Source: an uncultured bacterium (GTDB lineage Bacteria > Bacteroidota > Bacteroidia > Bacteroidales > CAIWKO01). Taken from it: a stretch of 35,813 nt of DNA. Below are positions 8,063-28,580 of the stretch, in pieces (position 1 is the stretch's first letter; every line of letters starts with the position of its first letter). Position numbers and translations under genes: made by a program. The stretch spans positions 1-35,813 of the forward strand of contig CAIOJS010000489.1 of assembly GCA_903858655.1 (NCBI GenBank), given 5' to 3'. The notes under the pieces are model-generated. The model did no database searches. It had not been told where the DNA came from and was given only the letters and a program-made list of their open reading frames with translations.

Positions 8063-8335
8063 ACTAAACATGACACAATATTCATAAATTTAGAAACAGA
8101 GAAGATAACATCTGAAACAGTGGCTCTAACATTAGAATCAGAATTCATAAAATATAATACAGTACCCTCAACATAATGATCATAAACAATAACATTTAAA
8201 ACAGTATCTTTAACTTTAGGAATAGAGTCAATAACATAAAAGGCAGTATCCATAACGTCAGAACCATAGTTAATGACACAAGAATCAGAATACATAACAT
8301 TAGGAACTGAGTCCATAACATGTAAAACGATGCTC
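8063..8335. repeat. Array 1: 13 diverged 21-bp direct repeats in perfect register (plus-strand consensus about ATAACATnAGAAnCAGnnTCC)
   Basis: Units start at 8063, 8084, 8105, 8126, 8147, 8168, 8189, 8210, 8231, 8252, 8273, 8294 and 8315, each exactly 21 nt after the last. TAACAT (unit positions 2-7) and CAG (positions 14-16) are conserved, while the remaining positions vary. Confidence 0.8.
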
Positions 8336-8650
8336 AAAAGCTTATAAACACTGAACATTTTGCAACTGACGGCATAAAAAAAATAGAAATCGAAGTTTAA
8401 AATATGAATCACAGTAAATGAAATATTGTCATCCTACTTCATTATAACACTGTCTTCACTCAAAAAGCATCTGTCAAAACGCTTAAGTATTCCGTGACAG
8501 TGCTTCAAAACAAGCAAGGTGTTGAACAGAATCTCATGTCACAACAAAAGATCATCAACAGATAATAGATTTCTGTTTCAGCCAATAGTCTTTCTTAAAT
8601 CGTGTTTAAATTAATGGCTTTGCTATTTAATCAACTTCTCTTCAGCATAC

Positions 8651-8690
8651 TAAAAAAGGCTTGTTTTGTAAATAACAGACAAGCCTTTTT
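8651..8690 (-). terminator. Rho-independent terminator of the giant T9SS gene (structure is bidirectional)
   Basis: AGGCTTGT (8657-8664) pairs with ACAAGCCT (8679-8686). An A6 run precedes it on the plus strand (T6 after the hairpin on the minus strand) and T4 follows on the plus strand. It lies 56 nt downstream of the stop at 8746. Confidence 0.7.
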
Positions 8691-8745
8691 CAATATCACT
8701 CCTCCAAACAAACAATATAGCAATTCAAATTAATCAACCAATTCC

Positions 8746-11700
8746 TCAATTCTTGACAATCTTATCCGAATAGGTATGTATTTTATCATCAATATCAACA
8801 CCGCTAAATCTGAAATAGTAAATGCCCGAATTTACATCAACACTCTCCCACTTAACTGTATGCGCACCGGCATCCTTCGGGCAATTGTCAATATGCCCCA
8901 TATTTTTTCCTTCAGATGTAAATATGTCAATATAAATCTCTGTCATATTTCTACTTAAAGTGTAATAAAAACCAACGTCTTTTGTAAATGGATTGGGACT
9001 TGCATACACATTGTCAATCCAAGGTCCTTCCAAAATAATTACCTTAGTTGTTTTGCTGTTGTTGTTGGCACACACCTCGCAAATAGAATCGAGCGAGGTA
9101 ATCTTTGAATAAATTGTCAAGGTAAAGGCATTTTCTGGAATGGTAAAAGGTACTGTATAAACTACCGTTTCCTGAGCCAGCAATTGCGCATAGAATTTTT
9201 CACCGATTTTAACGGAGTCGTTCCCCATAATAGCATACACTTGCAGCCGCACATTGTTCACAGCCATGCCTGTGTTCTGAGCATACACTGTTACATTAAT
9301 CTTTTCGCCCTTCAGCGCTTCACTTTTATCAGAAGTTAGATTCGTCAGATTTACATCCGAAGCAGGAAAAATCAATAGCGTGGTGTCGGGGTATGAATAA
9401 TATTCGGTAGTAAACTGACCATTATATGAGATGTCAATTTGTGAAATTAAATCAAGGAAGTTGACGATAGAATCGCAAATCTTTTCATCCAATTTGTAAT
9501 GGAGATACAAATCCTTGCGCTGCCCGGGCGTATATAATCCCATTAAAGCAGTTGTGGTAGGCTTCGAATATGTGCAGTTTGAAGGCAAACTATCGGTTAA
9601 AACGTAGTATGCCGGACCATTTTTTATGCCCAATGTGGTGTTCAAAGCTATATCACTGCCAATATTATAGGACGAAATCAAAGCCACAATATCCAGAGAG
9701 GTGTTGGGTGCAAAAATTATCGTATCATTATCGCCCACAGGAATGCCGTTGATACTAAAGATTTTCTTGGTTAAATAGATTCTTGGACCTATGGGAACCA
9801 CACTCACAACTCCATCACTTGTAAAGTTCGAAGCGTTGTCGTAATTATAATTCAATTGTTCGCTGCTAGTAATGGGCAAATTTTCGCCCACTGGAGCATT
9901 AGAGGAATTGACTTCTCCCTGCTCAAGAATATAGATTTTTGAAGTGTCTTTAGAAGGAAAATGATGGAATGAACTCATATCAATCACTTCCTTGTTACTT
10001 CCTTGGTTATAGTTGGTAGGCAGGGTAGCCGTCATAGTAGGAAAGTCAGTATAATTTACATCATTTGCCGACCATTTTACGTTTTCCAAGCCTTTAAATT
10101 CCGAAGTGGTGTTTACGGTGATATTTGTTAAATCTCCATCGCCAATCACCAATTTCTGAAATGCAGCGATATTTCCAGTTGGAGTTTTGGGCGTGATGCT
10201 AAACTGCAACTGAGGCACATTATAACTAACAGCACCATGATTTGCACCTGTGTAATGAACTTTGTTGCCTGTAATAGTAAAAGGTATGCTATAAATTCCC
10301 GGAGGCAAACTTTCATCTATACTTATAAGAAACATGAAATAAGCCCTGCGCGTAGGTTGCAACAGATTCAGGGTGTCGCCCATTTTCACCAGAACCTCTC
10401 CATCGGGTTGATTAAAGCGCCATCCGGTGGTGAACGATCCGATTTGGTCGCCCGAATGTAAAACGGCTCCCGTATTTGGATCAGCAACCGCAGGAACCAA
10501 AGGACGTGGATACGCCACATATTTCATAACAACATGGGTGCTGCCCAATGCAGCTGGAATTGTAGGCGTTATTTTGGTATCTAACCAGTTATCATCCGTG
10601 CCATTAACCACCGTTATCATGGCTTCAACAAAGGTGCCACTTACGGTTTGAGGGAAGCCTGCAAGATCAGGATTACCGGGGTCAGCTAATGGAACTAACG
10701 TTAGTGTCTTATGGTCGAAAGCAGGATCAAAAATGGCGGGCATTGTATAAGAAGGCTCTATCAAACTGCAAGGGTCTTTGCCACCTGCATAAGTAGAAAT
10801 TGATACATCTCCATAGCCATAGCAAACATGGTAGGGATCGAAATCGCCATCGAATTCATGGGGTTCATTAAGGTCTTCAACTTTGTGTTTCAGATAGCAG
10901 GTGTCAATCCCAATTTTAACCACCGAAGGGCTTGGTGTAGATGTAATTGAAAGATCAACACCTTGCGCAAATGCCGATAATGTATGCGAGAAAATCACCC
11001 AGGGCGACCCACCGAAAATCTCTTCCACCACCAGCCAACCGCCTTTGCTGATATCCACAGGACCTTCCTTGCCTTTGCCTTCGTAAATGGCATTGATGTT
11101 GAAATGAACTTTACCAAGATCGTCAAACCAATCGCTGCCGTAAGTATTATCTGCACCGGCACACCAGCCGGAATCCACCTGTCCTGCCATGCCTGCATCT
11201 AAATGAGAAAATACATGAGGCGAGCCTGCCGGATAATTTTCTCCATTGCCTATCATGTAAGCATCATGCAAATATCCTGTGGAAGAGTGGAACCTATCGC
11301 CCGAATCATCAATCCAATCATCAATGCCATCACCATTTTTATCGCATAAAGCAGGAGGAATAAGCAATTGCGGTATATGTATATGATAGTTGAAATCATC
11401 TTCCCAAATGGAGATAGAATCGGAAGTATGCGGATTGGAAATCCAGCGCTCGAAGTTATGCCCATCCACCTGCACGACGGAATTGATATCATAACTGCCA
11501 TCTATCAGTTTAGGAAGCGTGATTTTGTAATTAGAAAACCCTTTGGGGATGTCATAAACCATATATCCAAAAACACCATCTCCAAGCGATTCAACACCTT
11601 CTGCCGCCAGCGAAGGATCGTTGAAATCAACATCATGTCCTGCATTTCTAATCCAGTAATAAGAATATTCGGTAGAAGCATCCACATTAAAAGTGATGTA

Positions 11701-14307
11701 AGCTTTGCCTTTTTCAGGCAGGGTTTGCAGTGTATTTCCAATAGTATCTTTTATGATGAAGTTATTCGTAAGGTACTCAAATTGTAATGGATTTGGGAGC
11801 GGAGCATAATACGTATAAGTGGTTCTGATGGGTGTTTTTTTCTGTTCATTGAATATCGTTTTATAATCAATATTTGAATAGTTGGAGCGCACCGGCGTAG
11901 GATTTTTCATATCAATTTCTTCACCACCCATAGATAGCACTGCAATAAACTCATTATGCGGCTGGGGAACAGTGCCTACACAGGTGTCAGTAGGTAGCAG
12001 ATGATAGTGGATGGCAGCAGTATCTATAAAAGTATAACCTTCGTAATTGTTGATGCTTTGATTGATTAACTGTACATATTTTATATGACCAGTGGAATCT
12101 CTGTCCATCCAATGTGTCCAGGAAGTGTCAGAAAGATTCGGGCTGCTCAGGTTAGGAGAATAGGGATAGAACATACCGGGAACACTTTCGGTGAGCGTTC
12201 CTTGTACATGCCCAATTCCTGCAGCCATTTTAACAAGGTCAGGAGGATCAACCCATATCTCATAAGAACAATACGGATCATACACCTGATGTCCGGGCAC
12301 CTGGTTGATGTTCCAAGTAACCTTCCAAACGCGTATTTTGTCGCCGGGAGTACCAACGTCCACAATGCCATCATTATTTAGGTCCTGCGGTCTGAGTCCA
12401 TCGTGGTTGATATCTTCATAATAAGGTATGCTATCTCCCGTGGCAAGTCTGTGCCAGGGGTTTTGCCAATAAACGGAGTCTTCTGTAAGGGTATAACCTT
12501 TAGGATAGATGGATGCTGTATCGAGCCATGCATCCGGATGCCCGTTATTACTAATATCAAATTCAGGGATACCCTGATTGTCGCTACCTTTCAACACATC
12601 AACAAACTTGCCGCCGGGAGTCTTCAAAACAGGAACATTCAGGCTATGGTCAACCCAATAAAAAGGAACATCTTTGGGTATATATTGAACATAGTGTGTT
12701 TGCTGAGCAGGGGTACGTTCCTTGTTTTCCATAATCATAAACACCTTGAAAGGCTGGTAATAAATTCCAAGAAAATTCTTCCAATTCAAATCGGCATCAG
12801 CAGCTAAATGAGCGCTGAACATCACATCGGCATAGGCTTTAAACTTCTTGTAATAATGTTTGCCTTCACCATCGGCATATCTGGTAGCATTTGTGGACGT
12901 ATTAATATAGGTGTCAAATGTAATATAATTATCTATATCGGTATGGATTTGAGATGTAATTGGCGGGGTTTTTATTCTATACACAATCACAGATTCTGAT
13001 CTGGCAGGTATATTAATCCCTGAGAATTCAACATCATTAGCATTTACTGTAGCATTGACTCCGGAGGTGAGCACATCAACAAAAGAAAAATAACCACCTA
13101 TGCTTTCATTAACCTTTATGTTGGCAACACCTACATCCGAAAGATTACGGACTTTTATTCGTATCTCAACAGTATCAACTTTGTCATAAGGAATAGCATT
13201 TTTACCAGCTATAACACCATTTGGTAAATCATTATAAACCGAACGGGTAACATCCACACTATTGGAAAGAGAATACAAGAGTGTATTAAAGGTCCACTGC
13301 AATTGTCTGCTTCCAGCAAGTATTTCGCTATTGCCGCCAACAGTAGGCAAACCTAGGTTACAAATGATTCTTCCTCCTCCTGCTTGCGGTCCTTTCAACA
13401 CAAAGATAGCCGGAGCCGAATTACTGGCAACACGTGCTACAACTTCTGCGCTCCCTGCATTTACACTAGGAACTGAACTTGCATACAGAAAATTACCTGT
13501 GGCATCTGCTGTATAGCTGATAGGATTGTTTGGACTAGTTATATTGATGCCAATAAGATTTGTACTTAAATCGGCATTAACGAAGGTGGAGAAGTCAACC
13601 GAACCGGGAGCTAAAAACCCTAGCTTCTCAATCAGGTAAACTGCAATGCCTTCAGCATAAATAGTGCCCCCTTTGTACAAGAAAGTGTCTATCTTAGCTT
13701 TCATATTCGGCGAAGCAGCAATCACACTGTCCATATAAAACATTGCGTTACTTCCTGCAACTACAAAGGAAGGCAAAATTAATAACTTGGTATTGTCATT
13801 AAGATAATTGTTATCGAAGGTGTGTTCATCCACATAGTAATACATGTCATTATAAAGATAGGTGTCGAAAGAGTTCTTAAAATACATACTTTCCCATGTA
13901 ACACTCAGATTATTTTGAGTTATGGAACTCTTGAAAACAGCCACAGTTTTCGGGTCTCTTTTAAATTGCAATGCATAATGAGATGAACTTTGCCAGTTAT
14001 AAGCACCGTAATTGGTTGATGTTACTGACGAAAATTCAGAAGGAACAGCTTCAGGAAGGATAAAACTTCCTTTATTGCTTCCCGATCCTGCCCAATAAAC
14101 AGAAAATTCGCCAAACTTAGGAAACAGCAAGCTATCCATATTGCCTGTCATTCGATAATCCAAATCTGATTTTTCGAGCGCAAGTTTGTAGGCTTTCAGA
14201 AAATCGGATTGAGTGTTATTGGTTGGAATAATAACTCCCTGAGCAAATAACATTTTAGTGAAGAATACAAAGAAGAGTATTAAAAAAGTGTATTTAACTT
14301 TAAACAT
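8746..14307 (-). CDS. Giant (1853 aa) secreted T9SS cargo protein with CARDB/DUF11-like beta-sandwich domains and Asp-rich Ca-binding-like loops
   Basis: N-terminal signal peptide (FFTKMLFAQG). The C-terminal ~85 aa (ASPNPFTKDVGFYY...GIYYFRFSG...DKIVKN) fit the type-A Por/T9SS sorting domain. CARDB-like segments include KGEKINVTVYAQNTGMAVNNVRLQVYA and VEIRIKVRNLSDVGVANIKVNE. DxDxDG-like loops include DKNGDGIDDWIDDSGD and DLNNDGIVDVGTPGD. Confidence 0.85.
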   Translation of the reverse strand: MFKVKYTFLILFFVFFTKMLFAQGVIIPTNNTQSDFLKAYKLALEKSDLDYRMTGNMDSLLFPKFGEFSVYWAGSGSNKGSFILPEAVPSEFSSVTSTNYGAYNWQSSSHYALQFKRDPKTVAVFKSSITQNNLSVTWESMYFKNSFDTYLYNDMYYYVDEHTFDNNYLNDNTKLLILPSFVVAGSNAMFYMDSVIAASPNMKAKIDTFLYKGGTIYAEGIAVYLIEKLGFLAPGSVDFSTFVNADLSTNLIGINITSPNNPISYTADATGNFLYASSVPSVNAGSAEVVARVASNSAPAIFVLKGPQAGGGRIICNLGLPTVGGNSEILAGSRQLQWTFNTLLYSLSNSVDVTRSVYNDLPNGVIAGKNAIPYDKVDTVEIRIKVRNLSDVGVANIKVNESIGGYFSFVDVLTSGVNATVNANDVEFSGINIPARSESVIVYRIKTPPITSQIHTDIDNYITFDTYINTSTNATRYADGEGKHYYKKFKAYADVMFSAHLAADADLNWKNFLGIYYQPFKVFMIMENKERTPAQQTHYVQYIPKDVPFYWVDHSLNVPVLKTPGGKFVDVLKGSDNQGIPEFDISNNGHPDAWLDTASIYPKGYTLTEDSVYWQNPWHRLATGDSIPYYEDINHDGLRPQDLNNDGIVDVGTPGDKIRVWKVTWNINQVPGHQVYDPYCSYEIWVDPPDLVKMAAGIGHVQGTLTESVPGMFYPYSPNLSSPNLSDTSWTHWMDRDSTGHIKYVQLINQSINNYEGYTFIDTAAIHYHLLPTDTCVGTVPQPHNEFIAVLSMGGEEIDMKNPTPVRSNYSNIDYKTIFNEQKKTPIRTTYTYYAPLPNPLQFEYLTNNFIIKDTIGNTLQTLPEKGKAYITFNVDASTEYSYYWIRNAGHDVDFNDPSLAAEGVESLGDGVFGYMVYDIPKGFSNYKITLPKLIDGSYDINSVVQVDGHNFERWISNPHTSDSISIWEDDFNYHIHIPQLLIPPALCDKNGDGIDDWIDDSGDRFHSSTGYLHDAYMIGNGENYPAGSPHVFSHLDAGMAGQVDSGWCAGADNTYGSDWFDDLGKVHFNINAIYEGKGKEGPVDISKGGWLVVEEIFGGSPWVIFSHTLSAFAQGVDLSITSTPSPSVVKIGIDTCYLKHKVEDLNEPHEFDGDFDPYHVCYGYGDVSISTYAGGKDPCSLIEPSYTMPAIFDPAFDHKTLTLVPLADPGNPDLAGFPQTVSGTFVEAMITVVNGTDDNWLDTKITPTIPAALGSTHVVMKYVAYPRPLVPAVADPNTGAVLHSGDQIGSFTTGWRFNQPDGEVLVKMGDTLNLLQPTRRAYFMFLISIDESLPPGIYSIPFTITGNKVHYTGANHGAVSYNVPQLQFSITPKTPTGNIAAFQKLVIGDGDLTNITVNTTSEFKGLENVKWSANDVNYTDFPTMTATLPTNYNQGSNKEVIDMSSFHHFPSKDTSKIYILEQGEVNSSNAPVGENLPITSSEQLNYNYDNASNFTSDGVVSVVPIGPRIYLTKKIFSINGIPVGDNDTIIFAPNTSLDIVALISSYNIGSDIALNTTLGIKNGPAYYVLTDSLPSNCTYSKPTTTALMGLYTPGQRKDLYLHYKLDEKICDSIVNFLDLISQIDISYNGQFTTEYYSYPDTTLLIFPASDVNLTNLTSDKSEALKGEKINVTVYAQNTGMAVNNVRLQVYAIMGNDSVKIGEKFYAQLLAQETVVYTVPFTIPENAFTLTIYSKITSLDSICEVCANNNSKTTKVIILEGPWIDNVYASPNPFTKDVGFYYTLSRNMTEIYIDIFTSEGKNMGHIDNCPKDAGAHTVKWESVDVNSGIYYFRFSGVDIDDKIHTYSDKIVKN

Positions 14308-14323
14308 AAGACCTCCGTTTTTT

Positions 14324-15250: not shown

Positions 15251-15289
15251 TTTTTATGATACACAATTTCCACAATTTTAATAAAAACG

Positions 15290-19046: not shown

Positions 19047-19604
19047 TTAAATTTTCCAGAGTGTTTCCGCGACGCCTAAATCTTTGGCAACATAACGAGC
19101 TAGCACAAAAAAATAATCCGAAAGACGGTTGATATATTTTAATACTAGTTTTTGTTTTTCGTTAAACAAATCAAGTTTCACCATGGCTCGTTCTGCCCTA
19201 CGACACACTGTGCGAGCAATATGGCAATAGGAAACCACAGGATGTCCGCCCGGCAAAATGAAATGTTTCAGTTCGGGCATGCGTTCGTTCATGCGGTCAA
19301 TTTCGGTCTCCAATAGTAGAATGTTTTCTTCGCTTAGCGATGGCAAATTGATGAGTGATTTTTCGGAATCGGCAGCCAGCAAAGATTCCGCGATAAAAAT
19401 ATGCGACTGAATGGCTAGCAAGGTGTGCTTTTGTTCCATCTCAATAGAGAAATCGCGGATAAGTCCGATAAAAGAATTTAATTCGTCGAGGGTGCCGTAG
19501 GCTTCGATACGCAAATCGGACTTTTCTACACGGCTTCCACCAATGAGGGAAGTGTTGCCGCTGTCTCCTTTTTTGGTATAGATTTTTTGATTATCGTAAT
19601 TCAT
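19047..19604 (-). CDS. PduO-type ATP:cob(I)alamin adenosyltransferase
   Basis: 185 aa. The N-terminal IYTKKGDSGNTSLIGGSRVEKSDLRIEAYGTLDELNSFIG is the hallmark of the PduO/MMAB family. Confidence 0.88.
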   Translation of the reverse strand: MNYDNQKIYTKKGDSGNTSLIGGSRVEKSDLRIEAYGTLDELNSFIGLIRDFSIEMEQKHTLLAIQSHIFIAESLLAADSEKSLINLPSLSEENILLLETEIDRMNERMPELKHFILPGGHPVVSYCHIARTVCRRAERAMVKLDLFNEKQKLVLKYINRLSDYFFVLARYVAKDLGVAETLWKI

Positions 19605-19608
19605 TTTT

Positions 19609-19692
19609 CAGTTAAATTAGTTCGGAGATCGGGGTTCAGAGTTTCTAGTTCAGGGTTCAGAGTTTCTAGTTTGGAGTTCAGAGTTCGGAGTT
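19609..19692. repeat. Array 2: about 3.5 copies of a 21-bp direct repeat (CAGGGTTCAGAGTTTCTAGTT) spanning the ABC ATPase stop codon and the intergenic gap
   Basis: Full units lie at 19630-19650, 19651-19671 and 19672-19692, with a half-matching unit at 19609-19629. Units 1 and 2 differ at one base. Confidence 0.8.
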
Positions 19693-20426
19693 TGGGATAC
19701 CAATTCTGCGTAAAATTTCATCTTGCGGATGTTTTCGTTTAGTTCGTCGGTGTCGACAACGCCATCTTTGAGGCGTATGATACGATGGGCGTGGCGTGCA
19801 ATGTCTTCTTCGTGAGTCACTAAGATAATAGTGTTACCTTGTTCGTGGATTTCTTCGAATAGCCCCATGATTTCGATGGATGTTTTCGAGTCGAGGTTAC
19901 CTGTGGGTTCATCTGCCAAAATAATAGAGGGTTTGTTGACCAAAGCTCGAGCAATAGCCACCCTTTGGCGTTGCCCACCCGAAAGTTCGTTCGGTTTGTG
20001 GGTGATACGGTCGCTGAGTTGCACCTGTTCCAATACTTCTTTGGCACGTAGGATGCGTTTGTTGTTGTTGAATCCTGCATAAATCAAGGGTAAGGCAACA
20101 TTGTCGAGCGCCGTGGAACGAGGTAGGAGATTGAAGGTTTGGAAAACAAAACCGATTTCTTTGTTGCGGATTTCGGCGAGTTGGTTGTCGTTGAGTTTGC
20201 TCACATCTTGCTGATTTAGGATGTAGGTGCCCGAGGTGGGCGTATCCAAACATCCAATAATATTCATCAAGGTGGATTTGCCCGAACCCGAAGGTCCCAT
20301 CAGGGCAACATACTCGTTCTTATATATCTTCAACGATATGCTTTGCAAAGCTTTGACAATATAAGTGCCCACTTTGTAATGCTTGGTAGTGTTGGTCAGA
20401 CTGATTATTTCGTTTTTCATGTTCAT
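19650..20426 (-). CDS. ABC transporter ATP-binding protein (MacB/LolD-like) with a repeat-derived C-terminal tail
   Basis: Walker [10 protein letters not shown], signature [15 protein letters not shown], Walker [12 protein letters not shown], and [20 protein letters not shown] typical of the MacB/LolD clade. The last ~14 codons ([13 protein letters not shown]) are encoded by the 21-bp repeats. Confidence 0.9.
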
Positions 20427-20447: not shown

Positions 20448-21167
20448 TCAATACTTTAAATTGAAATGTTGTTTGGCAATATTTTTTTTGAAGAAAACAA
20501 TTCCGAAGTGAAAAATATCCAAACTTAAACTGATGTTTTCGTTTCGAATGATTTCATTCCAAGCATTTTCCATCAGTTTAGAAGTATGTATCCTCGAAAA
20601 AATAAAAACACTGTTTTCATCAACAAAAGGTAAACATTCAAGAAAAAGTTCGACCAGCTCTTTCCCAAAAAACATATTGCTGAAATAAACAACACCTAAA
20701 GGGAAGTTTTGTTTTGCCTCGTCAGGAGTAATTGGTTCGTTTTTCCAAGTAATACAATAATCAAGGAACAATGAAGCCATTTGATTTTGATGAGCAATTT
20801 TAGCGAGTTGCCATTTTTCATCGCTAGCGATTAGCTTAGCTTCCATTTGGGCATACATCATAAACATGGGGGCAATTCCCTCAGATGTGCCGATTTCTAA
20901 AATATGCGTCGGTTGGATATATTCCACGATGCGATATAATAAAAAAGCATCGCGACATGACGGAATTTGCTTGCGGATAGCTTTCGCATGTTCGCGCAGG
21001 GTGGTCTTACGCAGGCTTTCAATCGTGTTTAGCTTTAAAGGTAATTTTCGCTTTGCGCATATCACTTTGGTATAAAAATCAAAAGCGAAAGGCGCATGAA
21101 CGGCATATTCCGATTGTGATTTCATACAAAACTTGAACTGTGATAGTATCCGATAGGCTTGAGACAT
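20448..21167 (-). CDS. Class I SAM-dependent (O-)methyltransferase-like protein
   Basis: Carries the motif I-like ILEIGTSEGIAP. I place the start at ATG 21167 (MSQAYRIL...) rather than the track's 21227, because a perfect -7 box lies at 21185-21192. Stop is 21 nt from the ABC ATPase start. Confidence 0.6.
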   Translation of the reverse strand: MSQAYRILSQFKFCMKSQSEYAVHAPFAFDFYTKVICAKRKLPLKLNTIESLRKTTLREHAKAIRKQIPSCRDAFLLYRIVEYIQPTHILEIGTSEGIAPMFMMYAQMEAKLIASDEKWQLAKIAHQNQMASLFLDYCITWKNEPITPDEAKQNFPLGVVYFSNMFFGKELVELFLECLPFVDENSVFIFSRIHTSKLMENAWNEIIRNENISLSLDIFHFGIVFFKKNIAKQHFNLKY

Positions 21168-21192: not shown

Positions 21193-21327
21193 ATGATTAT
21201 TGCATTAGCTTCGACGGAATTTCGCAAAATGTTTTTTCTTTCTTCAGATAAGAAAAAATGATGTTGAAATATGTCAAAATGTCATGCGAAAATCAAGCCT
21301 TTTGCTTGCGACTGACAAAAGTGCTCC

Positions 21328-21537
21328 TTTTTTGTACCGCAACGACTCTTTTTTGTACCGCAACGATCCTTTTGACCGCCGCAACGATCCTTTTGACCAC
21401 CGCAACATTCCCTTCAACCACCGCATCATTCCTTTCGACCATCGCATCATTCCTTTTGAGTATCGCAATGTTCCTTTTGAGTACCGCAATGTTCCTTTTG
21501 AGTATCGCAACAACTCTTTCGACCACCGCAACGTTCC
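21328..21537. repeat. Array 3: 10 copies of a 21-bp direct repeat (consensus TTTTGACCACCGCAACGTTCC) in perfect register
   Basis: Units start at 21328, 21349, 21370, 21391, 21412, 21433, 21454, 21475, 21496 and 21517. CGCA (unit positions 11-14) and C-TTT (positions 21, 1-3) are invariant or nearly so. Variation clusters at positions 4-10 and 15-20. Confidence 0.9.
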
Positions 21538-21732
21538 TTTACGCTATATGGAGCATATTTGCAGTTTTCGCACTTACTTTTCGCTGCTGTTCCAAAATTC
21601 TTCTTCTTTCATCAAAAAGAAAACATAGAAATACATGATGATATATGCCTAATATTATTCAATTTACGTTACTGAAAACATCAGGAAAATATTTTTCTTA
21701 AAAAATTTGTGCATCACAATAAAAAAAATTTA

Positions 21733-21740
21733 TAACTTTG
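21733..21740 (+). promoter_or_regulatory. -7 promoter box TAACTTTG (with TTTG at 21706-21709 as a candidate -33) for the trypsin-fold/TPR gene
   Basis: Perfect TAnnTTTG 14 nt upstream of ATG 21755. A TTTG lies 23 nt upstream of the box. Confidence 0.5.
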
Positions 21741-21754
21741 AAAAAAATTTCGGT

Positions 21755-22786
21755 ATGAAAAGATTTGTCATTCTTATTTTAATTGTTGTCAGCTTTTACT
21801 CCAAGGGGTTTTCTCAGGATAAAAGTGAGCTTTTGCAGAAAATCACACCCTCATTAGCCATTGTGAAAAGCGATGTTGTTATGGGCTATGGTTTTTTCGT
21901 TGGAAATAACACGCTTATGACCACCGTCAGTACGATTGGCAAACATCAAAAAGGCACGGTGCTGTTGGCAAACGGCAAGGTGGCTAACCTCATTGGATTT
22001 GTTGCCACCGACGACGAAAATGATTTGGTGTTGTTGAAAATTGATAACGACAGCGCGGAGCCTGCGACTATCGCATCGTATATGCCGATGCCCAATCAGA
22101 GCGTTTTTCTGCTGACAAGAAACGGCGAGGAGAAGCCCGAACTGATTGCTGCAAAATTAAATGCCTTCAAGGATTTGGGCAACATAAAACTGATTACCGT
22201 GAAAGCCAATGCGCCTTTGAAAACTGCCGGTTTTCCCGTTTTGGATTCCGTTGGCAATGTGTTGGGAATGACCGTAAGTTCCCCCATTGAAGGGTCTGTT
22301 ATGACTTTTGCAACGCCCGCTGAAAAGATTCTTCATCTTATAAAAAATAGTGGCGAATTGAAAGGATTGGAGTCGTTGACGTCTATTTTCGACCTCATCA
22401 GCAAACAAGCGGCAGTGAACGAAGAAAAAGCAAGAGCCTCGAAAGAGTTTCGCGAACAAGGTTTTCTGCGCTTAAGTAATAAAGAATATTCTGCTGCCAT
22501 CGAAAAATTCAGCATGGTGATACGCATCAACCCTTCGGATGCCGATGCTTATGCGTTCAGGGGTCAGGCGAAGTGTCTGCAATTGCGTTTCAAAGAGGCG
22601 TTGGAAGATTTCAACAAAGCCTTGGAGCTGCAGCCCGAATTTGCAGAAGTTTACGACATGCGCGGCGTATGTAAAGCCGAATTGGGCGACAAAGTGGGCG
22701 CCTGCGAAGATTGGACACTGTCTTATGAAAAAGGCTACGACCCTGCCTTCAAACTTATCGAGAAATTTTGTCCCCTCGAATATTAA
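21755..22786 (+). CDS. Secreted trypsin-fold (HtrA/S1C-like) pseudo-protease fused to three TPR repeats
   Basis: I place the start at ATG 21755 (MKRFVILILIVVSFYSKGFSQ is a signal peptide), not the track's TTG 21707. GYGFFVGNNTLMTTVSTI, ENDLVLLKID and KTAGFPVLDSVGNVLGM align by eye to the His, Asp and Ser boxes of S1C proteases. The C-terminus has TPR units (AYAFRGQAKCLQLRFKEALEDFNKALELQPEFAEVY...). Confidence 0.6.
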   Translation: MKRFVILILIVVSFYSKGFSQDKSELLQKITPSLAIVKSDVVMGYGFFVGNNTLMTTVSTIGKHQKGTVLLANGKVANLIGFVATDDENDLVLLKIDNDSAEPATIASYMPMPNQSVFLLTRNGEEKPELIAAKLNAFKDLGNIKLITVKANAPLKTAGFPVLDSVGNVLGMTVSSPIEGSVMTFATPAEKILHLIKNSGELKGLESLTSIFDLISKQAAVNEEKARASKEFREQGFLRLSNKEYSAAIEKFSMVIRINPSDADAYAFRGQAKCLQLRFKEALEDFNKALELQPEFAEVYDMRGVCKAELGDKVGACEDWTLSYEKGYDPAFKLIEKFCPLEY

Positions 22787-22897
22787 ACCTCACTGTTTTT
22801 GCGTTATCTAAGCGGCTTCACATTGGTTTGAAGCTTGCATTTCTATTTATTTAGGGGGATGCGTTGCGCTCGATTATCTTTTTAAAGCCCATGAATA

Positions 22898-24571
22898 GTG
22901 AATCTTAAAAAATCATTTGTCGTTTTTCTTTTTTTACTAAGTGTGGGCGGCATCGCCATGGCGCAGCGTGATTTCTCCAAAACAAATTTTCGGTTTCCCT
23001 TAGATATATCCCCCATCATCAGCGGCACTTTTGGCGAATTGCGCAACGATCACTTCCATTCGGGTTTGGATTTTGCTACTCAAAACAAAGAAAACCTCAA
23101 CGTGATGTGCATTGCCGATGGCTATGTGTCGCGCATCAAAATCTCCACTTCGGGCTATGGCAAAGTGATTTACGTGACCCATGCCAATGGCTTCGTTTCG
23201 GTGTATGCACATCTGAATGAGTTTAATGTAGTGGTTGAAGACTATGTGCGCCGCAAACAATACGAACAACAATCCTACGAAATCGAACTGTTTCCAAACG
23301 CTGCCTTGTTTCATCTGAAGAAAGGCGATTTGGTAGGCTACTCCGGCAATACAGGAGCATCCTCGGGACCACATCTTCATTTTGAAATCAGAAATGAACG
23401 GACAGAATTGCCCATCAATCCCTTTTATTTCAACAACTATCCCGCTGACAAGGTGAATCCAACCATCGAGAAGATGTATCTGTATGATATATCTAAAAAC
23501 AACAGCATAGAGTTGGGAAAGAAGAAAGATACGCTTGAGGTCAGCGGGAAAACGTATTTCGGCGTGGCGGCTTTCGACAATATCAATCAAGGGGGCACTT
23601 GTGGTATCTATGCTATGAAGGTGATGATAGATTCTGTGCTCATGTTTCGCCTGCATTTCGATTCTTTGAGCTTTGATGATGGACGCTACGTGAATGCTTT
23701 GATTGATTATCCCGAATATATTGCCCACGAAAAGCGGATTGTGACCACCTACGTGGCTCCCGGCAATAGGTTCAACAACAATATAGATGCAGAGGATGAA
23801 GGCGTGTGGGATTTCGAGGATACGTGTCTGCACCGCATTCAGTTTTTTGTATATGACTTTCAAGGGAATGTTGCCGTGGCGGAACAAATCGTGAAATCGA
23901 AACCGAAAAACTCAAGCGCTTCTATCTTTGCTGATAATGCTTCGCCTCTTTTTCGTTATGGATTAAAAAATCATTTCGAAGCACAGGATGTTCAGGTGGA
24001 TTTTCCGTCGAATGCGCTTTACGATTCTATCTATTTTGATTTCCGAACGCTGCCGCGCATCAAGGCAAGCTTTTCCAAAGTATTTCAAATCCACAATCGC
24101 TTCACACCTATCCATTCATTTGTTTCTTTACAGATAAAGCCCGACACTGCTATCAACCCCAACCTCAAAGCAAAGTTAACCATAGCCGAAGTATCTGAAA
24201 AACCTTATACCTACATCAAAAGTGAATGGACGGATGGAGTTCTTGCTGCCAAAATAAGACGCTTCGGCACCTATTGCATCGTGGCAGACAGCATCCCACC
24301 GGAAATTATTCCTATCGGCATATCAAACGGGAAAAAAGTAACGCCCGAAGCTCAACTGCGATTTAAAATTACAGACGATTTTTCGGGCATAAGCACCTAC
24401 GCACTTACGATTAACGACACGTGGGTGTTGGCAAGTTACGACGCTAAATCCGATATGCTTATCTATAAAATAGACGCGGCGCACTTCAAACGCGGGAGCA
24501 ATAGCCTCGAATTGAAAGTGACGGATCGGATGAAGAATTTGCGTGTGTATAGAACAAATCTAAATTTTTAA
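22898..24571 (+). CDS. M23-family (LytM-type) metallopeptidase with a long C-terminal extension
   Basis: GTG start and signal peptide (GGIAMAQ). Carries the HxxxD motif HFHSGLDF and the HxH motif GPHLHFEI. Confidence 0.85.
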   Translation: MNLKKSFVVFLFLLSVGGIAMAQRDFSKTNFRFPLDISPIISGTFGELRNDHFHSGLDFATQNKENLNVMCIADGYVSRIKISTSGYGKVIYVTHANGFVSVYAHLNEFNVVVEDYVRRKQYEQQSYEIELFPNAALFHLKKGDLVGYSGNTGASSGPHLHFEIRNERTELPINPFYFNNYPADKVNPTIEKMYLYDISKNNSIELGKKKDTLEVSGKTYFGVAAFDNINQGGTCGIYAMKVMIDSVLMFRLHFDSLSFDDGRYVNALIDYPEYIAHEKRIVTTYVAPGNRFNNNIDAEDEGVWDFEDTCLHRIQFFVYDFQGNVAVAEQIVKSKPKNSSASIFADNASPLFRYGLKNHFEAQDVQVDFPSNALYDSIYFDFRTLPRIKASFSKVFQIHNRFTPIHSFVSLQIKPDTAINPNLKAKLTIAEVSEKPYTYIKSEWTDGVLAAKIRRFGTYCIVADSIPPEIIPIGISNGKKVTPEAQLRFKITDDFSGISTYALTINDTWVLASYDAKSDMLIYKIDAAHFKRGSNSLELKVTDRMKNLRVYRTNLNF

Positions 24572-24624
24572 GCACTATTTTTTACTATTTGGATTAATTT
24601 TTGCTCTAGGTGAAGGAAATTTCG

Positions 24625-24632
24625 TAATTTTG
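24625..24632 (+). promoter_or_regulatory. -7 promoter box TAATTTTG (with TTTG at 24600-24603 as a candidate -33) for the DUF4468 gene
   Basis: Perfect TAnnTTTG 20 nt upstream of ATG 24653. A TTTG lies 21 nt upstream of the box. Confidence 0.5.
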
Positions 24633-24652
24633 TTAACTTAAATAATTATCTC

Positions 24653-25198
24653 ATGAAAAAGAATCTTGGAATCCTAAGTATGATGCTTCTTTTGGGAAGC
24701 GCTTCCATCAACGCCTCAGCGCAAACGTCTATCGTCCCTGTGGATGAAGACACCAAATTAATCACCTATAAAGAGGTGGTTACTCAAGAAGGCGACATCA
24801 ACAAACTTTACAACACCTGCATCGCGTGGATAAATGCCAACTACAAAAATGCCGCCGAAGCCACCACCGTGCGCGACCCCGAAAATGGCAAAATCATCAT
24901 TCGCCATAGTTTCAAAATATATAACACCGATAAAGACGGACTGAAAACCGATGCAGGCGTGATCAACTACACCTTAAAATTGGAGTTCAAACCCAACAAA
25001 TATCGCTATGTTTTCACCGATTTTGGTTTGCAGGCGGTATCAAAATACCCCCTCGAACGTTGGCTCGACAAAAAAGACCAAAAATATACACCCGTATGGG
25101 ATGTTTGGTTGGGCGAAGTGAATACTTGGGTGAACGACTGGATTACAAGTTTGAAAAAAGGCATGGTTCCGAAAGTGGCTAAGCCCGACAATTGGTAG
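24653..25198 (+). CDS. DUF4468-like secreted protein
   Basis: 181 aa with a signal peptide (SINASAQ). ITYKEVVTQEGDINKLYNTCIAWINANYKN...DPENGKIIIRHSF matches the DUF4468 pattern as I recall it. Confidence 0.55.
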   Translation: MKKNLGILSMMLLLGSASINASAQTSIVPVDEDTKLITYKEVVTQEGDINKLYNTCIAWINANYKNAAEATTVRDPENGKIIIRHSFKIYNTDKDGLKTDAGVINYTLKLEFKPNKYRYVFTDFGLQAVSKYPLERWLDKKDQKYTPVWDVWLGEVNTWVNDWITSLKKGMVPKVAKPDNW

Positions 25199-25235
25199 GC
25201 ACGCGTCAAATCTCTTTCCTGAATCATAAATGTTT

Positions 25236-25257
25236 AAGCGGCATGTTCCGCTTTTTT
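25236..25257 (+). terminator. Rho-independent terminator after the DUF4468 gene
   Basis: AAGCGG-CATGTT-CCGCTT hairpin followed by a T run (25252-25257). Confidence 0.6.
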
Positions 25258-25258
25258 G

Positions 25259-25266
25259 TACCTTTG
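25259..25266 (+). promoter_or_regulatory. -7 promoter box TACCTTTG for the add-rlmN-apt block
   Basis: Perfect TAnnTTTG 13 nt upstream of the in-frame GTG at 25280. It lies inside the track's TTG-25256 ORF extension, which argues for the shorter CDS. Confidence 0.45.
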
Positions 25267-25279
25267 CAAAAAAAATTGC

Positions 25280-26308
25280 GTGGAAACGAACAACATACTT
25301 GAGTTTATTTGTAACATACCGAAGGCGGAACTTCATGTGCATATTGAAGGGACTTTTGAGCCTGAGTTGATGTTCGAAATTGCGGCGCGCAACCATATCA
25401 CCCTAAAGTATCGCGATGTGGAAGCATTGCGCGAGGCATATCAATTTCGCAATCTGCAAGAATTCTTAGACATATATTATATAGGTTCGCGGGCATTGAA
25501 AACCGAGCGCGACTTTTATGACCTCACCACATCCTATCTGACCAAAGCCGCCTCGCAAAACATCCTGCACACAGAAATATTTTTCGACCCGCAAACGCAT
25601 CACGAAAATGGCGTTGCTTTTCCCGTAGTTTTCAATGGCATTTATGATGCTTTGCAAGATGCAGAGAAAAACTTGGGCATACATGGAGATGTAATCATGT
25701 GCTTCTTGCGCCATTTGGATGAAGCTTCGGCATTCGCCACTTTGAAACAGGCTCTCCCTTTTAAAGATAAAATCATCGGCGTGGGTTTGGACTCTTCCGA
25801 GAGCGGCAATCCGCCCCATAAGTTCGTTCGGGTGTTTGAAGCAGCGCGCCAAGCGGGTTTCGTGGCAGTGGCTCATGCAGGCGAAGAAGGTCCTGTGGAC
25901 TATATCCACGATTCGTTGGATTTGTTGAAGATTTCGCGCATCGACCATGGCAACAACTCCAAAGATGATGCACTGCTGATACAAAAAATCGCGCAGCAAA
26001 GAATCCCCCTCACGATGTGTCCGCTCTCGAATCTGAAGCTGCATGTGGTGAAAGATTTGCGCCATCATCCTCTGAAAACCCTATTGGACAACAAGGTGGT
26101 AGCCACCGTGAACTCCGACGACCCTGCCTATTTTGGCGGTTATCTGAACGAAAACTATATCGCCATACAACAAGCTTTGGAATTGTGGCACGAAGACATC
26201 ATCACACTTGCAAAAAACTCTTTTGAGGCATCTTTTATTGATGCTGCGCAAAAGCAAACCTATATGAACCGTATTGACACTTTCGTAAACGATTTTAATG
26301 CATCTTAA
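25280..26308 (+). CDS. add: Adenosine/adenine deaminase (amidohydrolase superfamily)
   Basis: IPKAELHVHIEGTFEPELMF (HxH metal site), HAGEEGP, and SVNSDDPAYFGG-type (TVNSDDPAYFGG) motifs. Start is set at GTG 25280 and is uncertain by a few codons. Confidence 0.88.
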   Translation: METNNILEFICNIPKAELHVHIEGTFEPELMFEIAARNHITLKYRDVEALREAYQFRNLQEFLDIYYIGSRALKTERDFYDLTTSYLTKAASQNILHTEIFFDPQTHHENGVAFPVVFNGIYDALQDAEKNLGIHGDVIMCFLRHLDEASAFATLKQALPFKDKIIGVGLDSSESGNPPHKFVRVFEAARQAGFVAVAHAGEEGPVDYIHDSLDLLKISRIDHGNNSKDDALLIQKIAQQRIPLTMCPLSNLKLHVVKDLRHHPLKTLLDNKVVATVNSDDPAYFGGYLNENYIAIQQALELWHEDIITLAKNSFEASFIDAAQKQTYMNRIDTFVNDFNAS

Positions 26309-26317
26309 AACAAAAAC

Positions 26318-27358
26318 GTGAAAACACACATCAAAAATCTTTCTTTACAAGAGCTGACCGATTATGCCGTTCAACACGGTCAACAGGCGTTTCGCGCCAA
26401 GCAAATCTTTGAATGGATATGGAAAAAAACCGCCGTCAGTTTTGACGAGATGACCAACATTTCCGCGGAGTTTCGGCAGAAGATGAACGCCGATTTTCTT
26501 CTCAACTCCATAGAGATAGCCGAAGAAAAAGTGTCGTCGGACGGCACCCGCAAATACGTGTTGCAGCTCGCCGACGGGCATCAGATAGAAAGCGTTTTGA
26601 TACCTTCTAAAGACCGCCTCACCGCTTGTATCTCTTCTCAGGTGGGCTGTGTCTTGGGCTGTCGTTTCTGTGCCACGGGCAACATGGGTTTCGTGCGCGA
26701 CATGGATGCTTTGGAAATTCACGACCAAATTATCTTGCTGATGAAACTCGCCGTAGAGAAATTCTACACCTCCCTCGACAATATCGTCGTGATGGGCATG
26801 GGCGAACCCTTGCTGAATTTGAACAACACTCTCGCCGCTTTGGATAAAATTTCCGACAAAGCCACCCTGAATTTCTCGCCTCAACGTATCACCATCTCCA
26901 CCTCGGGCATCACCTCCGAAATCAAGAAAATGGCAGACAAAAACATCCCCTATCATTTGGCTATTTCCCTCCATTCGGCTAATGACAGCAAACGCAAACA
27001 GTTTATGCCCGTGGGCAACAAATATTCTTTGAGCATGCTCACCGACGCGCTCAAATATTATCATCAAAAAACGGGCAACCGCATCACCATCGAATATATC
27101 CTGTTCGACGGGCTCAACGATGCTAACGAAGACGCCGCCTCCTTGGCTTCTTTTTGCAGAAGTTTTCCCGTGAAAATAAACATCATCCCCTACAACTCCA
27201 CCGCCTCGCAGCTTTTCAAACCAAGCAGCAGCGCCAACATCAAAAAGTTTATCGCATTTTTAGAATCAAAAAACATCATCGTCAATCTCCGCCACAGCAA
27301 AGGCAGCGACATCCAAGCCGCCTGCGGACAATTAGCCAAAAATAACAACTTAAAATAA
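26318..27358 (+). CDS. rlmN: 23S rRNA/tRNA adenine-C2 methyltransferase (radical SAM)
   Basis: GTG start. FRAKQIFEWIWKK N-terminal motif, radical-SAM cluster CVLGCRFCATG, and C-terminal DIQAACGQL. Confidence 0.92.
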   Translation: MKTHIKNLSLQELTDYAVQHGQQAFRAKQIFEWIWKKTAVSFDEMTNISAEFRQKMNADFLLNSIEIAEEKVSSDGTRKYVLQLADGHQIESVLIPSKDRLTACISSQVGCVLGCRFCATGNMGFVRDMDALEIHDQIILLMKLAVEKFYTSLDNIVVMGMGEPLLNLNNTLAALDKISDKATLNFSPQRITISTSGITSEIKKMADKNIPYHLAISLHSANDSKRKQFMPVGNKYSLSMLTDALKYYHQKTGNRITIEYILFDGLNDANEDAASLASFCRSFPVKINIIPYNSTASQLFKPSSSANIKKFIAFLESKNIIVNLRHSKGSDIQAACGQLAKNNNLK

Positions 27359-27367
27359 ATAAGCACT

Positions 27368-27916
27368 ATGACATCAAATTCCAATGCAGCCATCACACTG
27401 CTCGACGTGGTAGAATCCATCCGCAACGTGCCCGATTTCCCCATCCCCGGCATACAGTTTAAAGACATCACCACCGCCATCAAACGTCCCGAGATTTTTC
27501 GCTATATGCTCGACCAAACCGCTGCCTATTACCAAAACATGGGCATCACCAAAGTGGTTGGCATCGAATCGCGCGGCTTCATCTTGGGCGGCGCTTTGGC
27601 AGCTCGCCTCAACGCAGGCTTCGTGCCCATTCGCAAACCCGGCAAACTGCCCGCGCCCACTTTTTCCAAATCCTATAGTTTGGAATATGGCGAAAACATC
27701 CTCCACATCCATCAAGACGCCTTAGAAACCAACGACGTGGTGTTGCTCCACGACGACTTGCTTGCCACAGGCGGCTCTGCCAAAGCAGCCATCGAACTCA
27801 TCCGCAACTTCGCCGTGAAATCCATCCACGTGAATTTCATCTGCGAACTCAGCTTCCTGAACGGCGCCGCGCAAATCGGTGAGGGGATAGAGGTGTTTTC
27901 GTTGGTGAAGTTCTAA
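27368..27916 (+). CDS. apt: Adenine phosphoribosyltransferase
   Basis: VPDFPIPGIQFKDIT, GIESRGFILGGALA, and the PRPP loop VLLHDDLLATGGSA. Confidence 0.93.
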   Translation: MTSNSNAAITLLDVVESIRNVPDFPIPGIQFKDITTAIKRPEIFRYMLDQTAAYYQNMGITKVVGIESRGFILGGALAARLNAGFVPIRKPGKLPAPTFSKSYSLEYGENILHIHQDALETNDVVLLHDDLLATGGSAKAAIELIRNFAVKSIHVNFICELSFLNGAAQIGEGIEVFSLVKF

Positions 27917-28300
27917 AGGTTCGCGCTTAAGAGGCAACTCAAAGAAATCCCAAAAATAAAATAATTTATCCGAATAAAAATATTTTTGAAAATACCCAGT
28001 GTTTTTTTGAAAAATTACGTTTATATGTTTAGCTGTCTCTTGATGGCATCACAATAGGCGATAAAAGGACTAAGGACCCTTTTACCAATTAGTATATTGA
28101 TGTTTCAAAATATTTATTATGAAGCATTTATTATTATTTGATGCAGCATTTCCCTGAATTAGATACTAAAATCAAATGTATGATGCAGATAAGATTAATA
28201 GTAATTTTGAAGCAATTGGAAAAAGTTCTTTGAATAACCTGTCTCCTTAACTATTGATATTACTGAATTATAAGAAATCATTGGGCTAAGTCGTCGTATT

Positions 28301-28308
28301 TAAATTTG
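28301..28308 (+). promoter_or_regulatory. -7 promoter box TAAATTTG immediately upstream of repeat array 4
   Basis: Perfect TAnnTTTG ending 12 nt before the first repeat unit (28321). I saw no clear -33 TTTG. Confidence 0.4.
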
Positions 28309-28320
28309 TCAATACATACT

Positions 28321-28580
28321 ATAATTTCGGATAATCAAGCAGGATTTCGGATAATCAAGCAGAATATCAGATATTCAAGCAGGATTTCGGAAATTCAAGC
28401 AGAATATCGGAAATTCAAGCTGAATATCGAAAATCCAAGCTGAATATCGGACAATTAAGCAGAATATCGGATAATCAAACAGAATATCGGACAATCAAGT
28501 AGAATATCGGAAATTCAAGCAGAATATCGGATAATCTAGCAGAATATCAGAAATCCAAGCAGAATGTCGGAAAACCAAGC
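28321..28580 (+). repeat. Array 4: 13 gap-free copies of a 20-bp direct repeat (consensus AGAATATCGGAWAWTCAAGC)
   Basis: Units tile 28321-28580 exactly every 20 nt. Positions 4, 5, 7, 8, 11, 13 and 18 are invariant, and most variation is at positions 6, 12, 14 and 15. No ORF of 60 aa or more crosses it in any frame. Confidence 0.95.

Follow-up and report, generated by a model that had tools for sequence, protein, structure and literature searches.

Non-coding tandem arrays with a two-helical-turn period adjoin single genes in an uncultured freshwater Bacteroidota and accompany an uncharacterised protein family

Results

Four tandem arrays in a chromosomal stretch

We analysed four tandem-repeat arrays (A1 to A4), each with a period of about two turns of B-DNA, in a stretch of 35,813 nucleotides from an uncultured freshwater Bacteroidota (assembly GCA_903858655.1, contig CAIOJS010000489.1; the whole stretch is called the window below). 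Three of the arrays are large, non-coding and in strict register, and A4 belongs to an apparently undescribed, widespread pairing of a protein family, consisting of a helical domain and a fibronectin type III (FN3) domain, with an adjacent array of 21-bp period. The window is chromosomal DNA of 39% GC with housekeeping genes for a resistance-nodulation-division (RND) efflux system, ftsX, uppP, truB, an lptB-like ABC ATPase, a pduO-type adenosyltransferase, adenosine deaminase, rlmN, apt and thymidine kinase, and several lake metagenomes hold near-identical strains (~95% identity). Proteins of the window carry the prefix w, loci from metagenomic relatives the prefix L and homologue proteins the prefix P. 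The features are collected in Table 1.

Table 1. Arrays, associated genes and borders of the variable island in the window
Feature	Position	Strand	Description
w298 gene	7073..7969	-	uncharacterised basic protein, 298 amino acids (aa), isoelectric point (pI) 9.7; partner of A1
Mechanical open reading frame (ORF) over A1	8047..8412	-	121 aa, 'VMDSVPN' heptads; judged spurious
Array A1	8068..8340	-	13 diverged 21-bp units, 42-bp super-period; ~100 nt upstream of the 298-aa gene
pduO-type adenosyltransferase gene	19047-19604	-	A2 lies 15 nt upstream
Array A2	19619..19696		heptamer AGTTCRG; 21 x3.7 or 7 x10.6 (Tandem Repeats Finder)
lptB-like ORF	19650-20426	-	last 15 codons overlapped by A2
yrrM-like class I S-adenosylmethionine-dependent O-methyltransferase gene	20448..21167	-	239 aa; conserved neighbour of A3
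Array A3	21327..21540		~10 units of 21 bp, unit AACGTTCCTTTTGACCACCGC
apt	27368-27916		left border of the variable island
Strain-variable island	27917..29403		between apt and the 207-aa membrane-protein gene
Leader of the A4 cassette	27951..28322	+	conserved, non-coding, ~370 nt
Array A4	28323..28583	+	13 units of 20 bp, unit AATATCGGAAAATCAAGCAG; 125 nt upstream of the 208-type gene
w224 gene	28708..29382	+	208-aa subfamily, helical domain and FN3; frame shifts near 29262
207-aa membrane-protein gene	29404-30027		right border of the variable island

All four arrays proposed by the initial annotation exist. Arrays were detected by Tandem Repeats Finder (TRF) and, where diverged, by autocorrelation against shuffled sequences; the copy numbers rely on short-read assemblies, in which repeats may be collapsed. 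TRF recovered A2, A3 and A4 (A4 as 20 bp x13.1 with 83% matches and 1% indels). A1 is too diverged for TRF and was detected by its autocorrelation: its identity is 0.53 at lag 21 and rises to 0.61 at lag 42, while shuffled sequences reach at most 0.44; A3 and A4 reach 0.80 and 0.83 at their own lags (shuffle maximum 0.41). The strict register despite divergence, claimed for all four, holds for A1, A3 and A4, and the 13 units of A1 can be laid out at 21 bp with the register kept. Conserved blocks ~10.5 bp apart had been noted in the two diverged 21-bp arrays, and the 10.5-bp harmonic of column conservation agrees with this (permutation p=0.014 for A1, p=0.001 for A3). The other TRF rows of the window are small ones or a 117-bp coding repeat, and no other large short-period array was detected there.

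No sign of coding was found in any of the four arrays; the large ones are non-coding, and the ORFs predicted across them are spurious. For A1 the column entropy by codon phase (0.97/1.01/1.08) gives no codon-phase periodicity, stop codons are not depleted relative to column shuffles (P=0.38), and the differences from the homologous array of L013 have no bias toward third codon positions. The conserved columns of the arrays take in wobble positions. Four of the six frames of A3 are open owing to base composition, so open frames are uninformative at A3. A4, whose 20-bp period is not divisible by 3 and which has stops in every frame, is non-coding. ORFs equivalent to those over A1 and A3 were annotated by gene callers in public assemblies.

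A weak sequence flavour (AGAAT..CAGAA/TCRGA) had been suggested to be common to three of the arrays. We found no 6-mer common to the arrays beyond column-permuted controls, and a common motif (AGAAT/TCRGA, but also TCNGA and GTTC) was dropped on these grounds.

The A4 cassette and the strain-variable island

A4 is preceded by a leader that is 74-81% identical across cassettes at different genomic contexts (blastn between loci, alignment), with counterparts at L018 787-1142 and L019 2439-2773. Its core of ~60 nt, TGTCTCTTGATTGTATCACAATAGGCGATAAAAGGACTAAGGACCCTTTTACC, is nearly invariant, and the leader is conserved at least as strongly as the adjacent protein gene. It holds two TAnnTTTG boxes, resembling the -7 element, one of which is located 10-22 nt before the array in the window and in L018. 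Rfam gave no match to the leader, and an RNA structure check found one compensatory pair among three sequences only, too few for covariation. Inspected by eye, a σ54-like site in the spacer between A4 and the gene and a CRP/FNR-like site in the upstream leader were both rejected for unfit spacing, and sub-threshold Rfam matches of A4 to microRNAs were dismissed as chance.

Homologous 20-bp arrays are positioned 91-140 nt upstream of every 208-type gene for which upstream DNA is available (L007, L008, L017, L018, L019), and their units are alignable around a core TCGGAA/TCGTCAA. We detected no terminator or -7 box between array and gene in these cassettes. The neighbour genes differ in L018 and L019, and gene and array travel as one cassette from one genomic context to another. 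In L018 an 8-bp x26.6 repeat (AATGATAC, 337-549) was also observed ~600 nt upstream of the 208-type cassette, so other periods reach large size in these genomes as well.

The cassette of the window occupies an island that is replaced in near-identical strains. Homology between the window and L001 ends at 27912 and resumes at 29407; the L001 island (9309-11084) holds, on the opposite strand, the gene of a 205-aa paralogue, and a different array (21 bp x12) follows the 3' end of that gene. The L002/L003 island encodes a 226-aa paralogue, followed in L002 (2782-4487), where arrays were scanned, by downstream 41/42-bp arrays. The island proteins of the window, L001 and L002/L003 are homologues, 26% identical. 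Three strains that are ~95% identical elsewhere thus carry three different gene-plus-array cassettes, with breaks exactly at the flanking genes, and this swapping at the apt island suggests diversifying selection.

The 226-type gene has a 21/42-bp array ~140 nt downstream (L009-L012) and a 10/11-bp array upstream in L009-L011, the three loci with enough upstream DNA. GGTCATTTGRT repeats with alternating 10/11-bp spacing (net period 21), an arrangement of one motif per helical turn, were observed at L009 3584-3707, L011 1465-1578 and L013 9209-9386; they are located upstream of the 226-type gene and also several hundred nucleotides upstream of the 298-aa homologue.

Arrays of period 21n are linked to the FN3-family gene

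One metagenome scan with the motif IIxSAGMxVK provided 80 loci of the FN3 family with GC of 32-72%, whose diversity is known from GC alone. Arrays with periods of 21, 42, 63, 84 or 126 bp (21n) were counted 55 times within 700 nt of the family gene (0.641/kb) and 6 times farther away (0.046/kb), a 14-fold difference in density (binomial p=3e-16). Arrays of other periods were not enriched near the gene (10 within 700 nt, 0.117/kb, vs 10 farther, 0.077/kb; p=0.37), so that 55 of the 65 tandem arrays within 700 nt have a 21n period. An alignment-free scan, which also recovers diverged arrays missed by TRF, gave a best lag of 21, 42 or 63 in 424 of 432 strongly periodic windows near the gene. The two-turn period, which the initial annotation had suspected to be non-random, is therefore non-random around this family, where 21/42/63 alone are enriched.

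An array is present in 36 of 51 non-redundant gene clusters, and in 21 of the 26 with at least 400 nt on both flanks. Periods are 20 or 21 bp (also 42/63), and the arrays comprise 5-24 copies. The 37 arrays that measure 100 bp or more are 115-507 bp long and located 42-314 nt from the gene, with one at 590 nt; 18 are upstream and 19 downstream. All four arrays of the window had been described as lying 5' of a gene start, and there this stands (15-215 nt from the start codon), with the qualification that A2 extends into the 3' end of the lptB-like ORF. Family-wide the location is as often 3' as 5', and other strains carry their own array at the apt island 3' of the gene. In all five downstream-type loci inspected, the array starts after a clear intrinsic terminator of the gene, which speaks against a 5' upstream element as the general form. 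The neighbour genes vary widely, and no second gene recurs beside the array in 11 loci inspected.

Between clades the units have no sequence relationship, and even genes that are at least 85% identical have differing units, while a short core is kept within clades as the unit turns over; in the P0036 clade, an AWCAAG core occurs in 6 of 7 arrays (p ~0.02). Many arrays consist of near-identical units, with a mean column entropy of 0.12-0.2 bits. The Bacteroidota -7 box (TAnnTTTG) is not enriched beside the arrays (2/33 vs a background of 4.6%), and Rfam returned no match on arrays, leaders or spacers.

A conserved, hairpin-rich segment of ~190 nt was observed between the upstream array and the family gene in L087 (2310-2500), L091 (1750-1940) and L092 (2310-2446). 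It has three stem-loops, one with apparent compensatory changes in L092, matches nothing in Rfam and is a candidate structured 5' leader. Contigs start or end in or beside an array at L007 1-158, L008 1-228, L017 4-260, L016 1, L062 1-150 and L074 1-148; since many family contigs end in this way, the arrays appear to break short-read assemblies, and the family contigs are typically 1-4 kb long.

A large family of helical and FN3 proteins

w224 is 96% identical to P0007 (208 aa) up to the residues ...EWINFV. The C-terminus of P0007, SPIAVKGDGKFHWTPPLL, continues in another frame of the window, where an intact w224 frame would end near 29333; the frame change (29255-29270) points to a pseudogene or else to an assembly error of one base. 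Among 1.84 billion representative proteins, a profile search detected 1040 relatives (E<=1e-3), typically of ~205 aa, giving a family size of at least 1040 clusters at 50% identity in bacteria of low and high GC. The family has no match in Pfam, PHROGs, PADLOC or NCBIfam, and the annotated members that we checked are all named 'hypothetical protein'. The proteins are mostly basic, with a median pI of 9.5 and a net charge of +6.

The AlphaFold2 (AF2) model of P0014 (73% identical to P0007), built from 137 sequences, has a pLDDT (predicted local distance difference test) of 94.8, with helices at residues 9-102 and FN3 at 119-206; it supersedes a first model from 19 sequences, in which the helical domain was poor (pLDDT 55). 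The FN3 profile matches the titin and gp130 FN3 domains in PDB with E down to 3e-11, and Foldseek returned matches to FN3 domains only. Fold search detected no analogue of the helical domain in PDB or BFVD. The FN3 assignment covers the C-terminal half only and is silent on function.

Family relatives are absent from the viral contigs, phage records and plasmid records searched, and tblastn found no family match in 72,556 plasmids; a phage or plasmid origin of the modules was dropped for lack of matches. Full-text literature searches, which were limited and do not prove absence, returned no account of the protein-array pairing.

A1 and the 298-aa protein

Read in gene orientation, A1 has the consensus GTTATGGAYTCTGTTYCTAAT; its conserved blocks, GTTAT and CTG, lie 11 nt apart and alternate with two variable blocks. 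Besides the window's own protein, the relatives of w298 form three homologue clusters only. In both homologue loci that could be read, a 21-bp array is located 80-165 nt upstream: that of L013, whose protein is 77% identical to w298, has the A1 unit, and that of L014, a 37% homologue from a different metagenome-assembled genome, has another 21-bp unit.

The products of the genes following A1 and A4 had both been described as a helical N-terminal region with a C-terminal beta-sandwich. For w224 the AF2 model and the PDB profile matches agree with this; for w298 the sandwich is suggested by a CarboxypepD_reg match in Pfam that is below the cut-off (E=0.008) and by the Pfam domains of the homologue P0024, the only basis for it. 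The possible homology of the two proteins, raised as a check, was not borne out, with no BLASTP match between w298 and the w224/FN3 family and an hhalign probability of 1%.

Directly 3' of the 298-aa gene, both in the window (7033-7066) and in L013 (10985-11173), we observed AATCAAC-type repeats with 9-, 17- and 34-bp periods, which recur in L009 (9542-9643, 10280-10340). They are a second repeat class, unrelated to the 21-bp arrays.

A3 and A2

A3 is upstream of both members of a divergent gene pair, 160 nt from the methyltransferase gene and ~170-215 nt from a peptidase/TPR gene. In strain L001 it measures 193 bp vs 214 bp in the window, a difference of about one unit. Homologues of the methyltransferase carry PF01596/PF13578 and are named O-methyltransferase YrrM. 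L102 and L103 encode a methyltransferase that is 71% identical, and ~180 nt upstream of its gene there is a 42-bp array homologous to A3, with the core GGAA(A)CGTT.CGG and with 10.3 copies in L102 and 5.3 in L103; the peptidase-side neighbour is replaced by another gene there. The synteny methyltransferase-lptB-pduO is kept in L102-L104, and no A3-like array was found at L104 (methyltransferase 37% identical). The conserved partner of A3 is the divergent methyltransferase gene, not the peptidase gene.

A2 had been counted as a member of the same class, which our results do not support. It is built on a heptanucleotide and measures 78 bp in the window; its counterpart in strain L001 is 40 bp with a 14-bp period, the lptB-like ABC protein has 239 aa in L001 vs 258 aa in the window, and the site in L102 is occupied by 9-bp repeats. 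We treat A2 as an ordinary variable simple repeat with an incidental 21-bp super-period.

Other observations

Beside the variable island, two small genes overlap (30254-30652 and 30622-30933). The first encodes a HEPN domain (Pfam E=9e-14) and the second resembles by eye a minimal nucleotidyltransferase (MNT; GSxxxG...DIDL), and together they are probably a HEPN/MNT toxin-antitoxin (TA) pair. The 117-bp x3 repeat (33960-34307, 77% matches) is inside a 402-aa ORF (33504-34712, minus strand), whose homologue in another strain has 379 aa, so it looks like a variable-length coding repeat. Among the loci of relatives, Rfam gave hits above gathering score that have no relation to the arrays: two DUF805 RNA motifs preceding DUF7670 genes (L014 2632-2700 and 3302-3370) and an Acido-Lenti-1 small RNA (L053 4096-4140).

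Discussion

The initial annotation proposed a possible genome-wide class of phased upstream elements. A class of phased arrays does exist and is conserved beside specific genes in relatives, while its members are gene-linked, have no common motif and are not always 5'. The data thus point to an association with certain genes rather than to a scatter over the genome. We tentatively read the large arrays as helically phased, iteron-like, protein-binding DNA, a reading that we consider quite possible; such binding, which we infer, may be by the product of the neighbouring gene. A1, A3 and A4 would be cis-acting DNA elements, rows of a short core site spaced every two helical turns (21 bp, 20 bp in one subfamily, and often as 42-bp A/B pairs). 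A repeat every two turns places successive sites on one face of the double helix, the arrangement known from plasmid iterons and partition centromeres. A sequence-specific protein would coat the array cooperatively and produce a local nucleoprotein structure. Each of the large arrays is co-inherited with a single neighbouring gene, whose own product would be the most economical candidate for the binder; the family beside A4 is accompanied by such an array, 40-300 nt to either side, almost without exception in many bacteria. Meanwhile the copy number of the units would drift via unequal exchange, with the period and the short core retained.

A binding platform at the DNA level is suggested by the two-turn period, which is kept whatever the sequence or GC, by the non-coding nature of the arrays and their location on either side of the gene, by downstream arrays that, in the loci inspected, lie past the terminator and so are not obviously within the transcript of the gene, by inheritance with one gene, and by the clade-specific cores. 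The 10.5-bp recurrence of conservation in A1 and A3, the basic character of the family and the movement of gene and array as one cassette also favour it.

In geometry and in their place beside a gene, the arrays are similar to iterons and tandem-repeat centromeres. Plasmid iterons are direct repeats of 17-22 bp, about two turns apart, in 4-13 or more copies beside the gene of their binder, and are bound by Rep initiators; examples are the R6K gamma origin (seven 22-bp repeats), P1, F, RK2 and pPS10, and the unit sequence co-varies with the protein. The arrays described here are likewise direct repeats at two-turn phasing that adjoin a gene. They differ in that there is no Rep/winged-helix initiator and no Rep domain in the protein, that the loci are chromosomal, with housekeeping neighbours on contigs of up to 608 kb and without matches to plasmids or phages, and that several modules occur per genome. 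Tandem-repeat centromeres include F sopC (12 x 43 bp), pSK41 parC (20-bp repeats) and R1 parC; in partition systems ~10-12 phased direct repeats adjoin the gene of a small coating protein, up- or downstream by system type. A phased direct-repeat array immediately up- or downstream of a small-protein gene is the likeness here. However, no ParA/ParM/TubZ nucleoside triphosphatase gene was found among the neighbours (window and 11 loci inspected), and the neighbour protein is not a ribbon-helix-helix or helix-turn-helix centromere-binding protein.

Several observations weigh against protein-binding arrays served by the neighbouring gene. No DNA-binding fold was recognised in the family by fold search, and the 208-type proteins beside A4-type arrays are acidic (pI 5.1). 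Five of the 26 clusters with both flanks available have no array. The 10.5-bp harmonic is not general, with p<0.1 in 7 of 37 related arrays elsewhere. A1 and A3 adjoin genes unrelated to the FN3 family, so no single binder is implied. The gene strand of the arrays is mildly purine-rich (26/37, p=0.02), a hint that orientation, and perhaps transcription, matters. Finally, a period inherited by unequal crossing-over needs no selection among close relatives.

The purine bias bears on an RNA-level module, in which the array would be transcribed, perhaps processed to units of 20/21 or 42 nt, and would bind or be bound by the neighbour protein, as in type III TA repeats or guide/scaffold arrays. The basic character of the family, the two conserved TAnnTTTG boxes upstream of the array in the 208-type cassette and the hairpin-rich leader of another clade are consistent with it, and the stretch from array to gene in the 208-type cassette, with no terminator or -7 box, means that the array could be a long 5' leader. 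We nevertheless consider this alternative unlikely: in the five loci inspected, downstream arrays follow the intrinsic terminator of the gene, promoter boxes are not in excess at the arrays, Rfam has no match, and a period fixed at the DNA helical repeat across GC of 32-72% has no obvious RNA rationale.

The known RNA-based systems also differ from the arrays. Type III TA systems (ToxIN, AbiQ, CptIN, TenpIN) share a short direct-repeat array beside a single protein gene, with a unit length fixed per family, but their units are ~34-45 nt vs 20-21 nt here, and their array directly precedes the toxin gene in one operon, with a terminator in between. The arrays described here occur downstream of the gene about as often as upstream, past its terminator in the five downstream loci inspected, and no terminator separates A4-type arrays from the gene. 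The helical and FN3 protein does not belong to the ToxN/AbiQ endoribonucleases, and PADLOC, Pfam and NCBIfam gave no match to it. TIGR units are 36 nt long with 16-18 variable nucleotides, conserved edge and loop repeats and two variable spacers, and are processed to tigRNAs that work with a Nop-fold protein (PMC12045711). TIGR-Tas is similar in being a non-CRISPR repeat array beside a small, largely helical protein, and A1-type arrays also alternate two conserved and two variable blocks. However, the units here are 20/21 nt, many arrays are near-identical in their units and so are not guide libraries, and Foldseek against PDB (entries to April 2026) found no match to Nop5, Prp31, IS110 or TasR, nor was any Nop-like protein found. 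CRISPR repeats are identical and alternate with unique, similarly long spacers, the units here being head to tail with none between them. The arrays thus do not correspond to type III TA, TIGR-Tas or CRISPR systems.

The arrays could instead be hypermutable minisatellites with no sequence-specific partner, products of slippage or unequal crossing-over in permissive intergenic DNA that simply inherit their period and are at most contingency loci tuning the expression of a neighbour. Contingency loci such as the 7-bp repeats upstream of H. influenzae hmw1A and the TAAA repeats of N. meningitidis nadA share the intergenic location near a gene and the strain-variable copy number (A3, L102/L103), but those units are of 1-7 bp and within one species, whereas the 21-bp period here extends across distant bacteria and half of the arrays are 3' of the gene. 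Copy number does vary between close strains (the A2, A3 and L102/L103 values above), units differ among closely related genes, and the same genomes carry 8-, 14- and 17-bp arrays. Tandem repeats are moreover generally enriched in prokaryotic intergenic regions (PMC12418385). This explanation leaves unexplained why 21n arrays alone are enriched beside one family of varied GC and 25-50% protein identity, why they recur on either side of the gene at 40-300 nt, why clades conserve a core, and why other periods are not enriched near the gene, and we regard it as improbable.

Intrinsically curved DNA, in which phased A/T-tracts would bend the DNA so that it activates or insulates from an upstream position without a protein dedicated to it, is a still weaker candidate and very unlikely. 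T/A-tract hexamers are the most widely shared unit words (TCTTTT in 8 of 10 array groups), and A3, L009dn, L017 and L019 are among the most curved 5% of windows in the Bolshoy wedge model. However, A1 (0.95), A4 (0.97), L001 (0.98) and L002 (0.99) are predicted to be as straight as background or straighter, the count of shared words is no higher than in column-permuted arrays, and GC-rich arrays have no A-tracts, so phased A-tract curvature as a general property was dropped as inconsistent across arrays. That the 21-bp arrays encode heptad-repeat proteins (called ORFs such as a 115-aa gene in L001 and a 183-aa gene in L014) is extremely improbable and largely refuted: 21, 42 and 63 are multiples of 3, one gene-strand frame is open across A1, L013 and L014, and the opposite strand is open in 34 of 36 arrays, but codon-phase variability is absent from A1, L013, L014 and all 36 arrays, stops are not depleted relative to column shuffles, no frame is open on the gene strand in 10 of 36 arrays or on either strand in 2 of 36, the close relatives L037 and L038 (L036 not) have stops in all six frames of the array, conserved columns include wobble positions and the 208-subfamily has a 20-bp period.

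Returning to protein-binding arrays, a more specific and somewhat more speculative possibility is that the FN3 family and its array form an undescribed two-part module, in which the protein recognises its own co-evolving array, as DNA or RNA, and builds a repetitive nucleoprotein assembly. Such a module would be a chromosomal counterpart of iterons and centromeres with a new fold, and A1 and A3 would follow the same array principle with other proteins. Its roles could include, for example, chromosome organisation, local silencing or defence.

In practical terms, the arrays disrupt short-read assemblies and account for spurious 'heptad-repeat' genes in publicly annotated records. Should the pairing prove functional, a large unannotated family would be defined by a sharp signature, a non-coding array of two-turn period, and the binding of the protein to its own array would be the first testable hypothesis for this family. 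The pairing would then be a chromosomal, multi-copy addition to the systems that combine a protein with a repeat array (iterons, centromeres, type III TA, CRISPR and TIGR).

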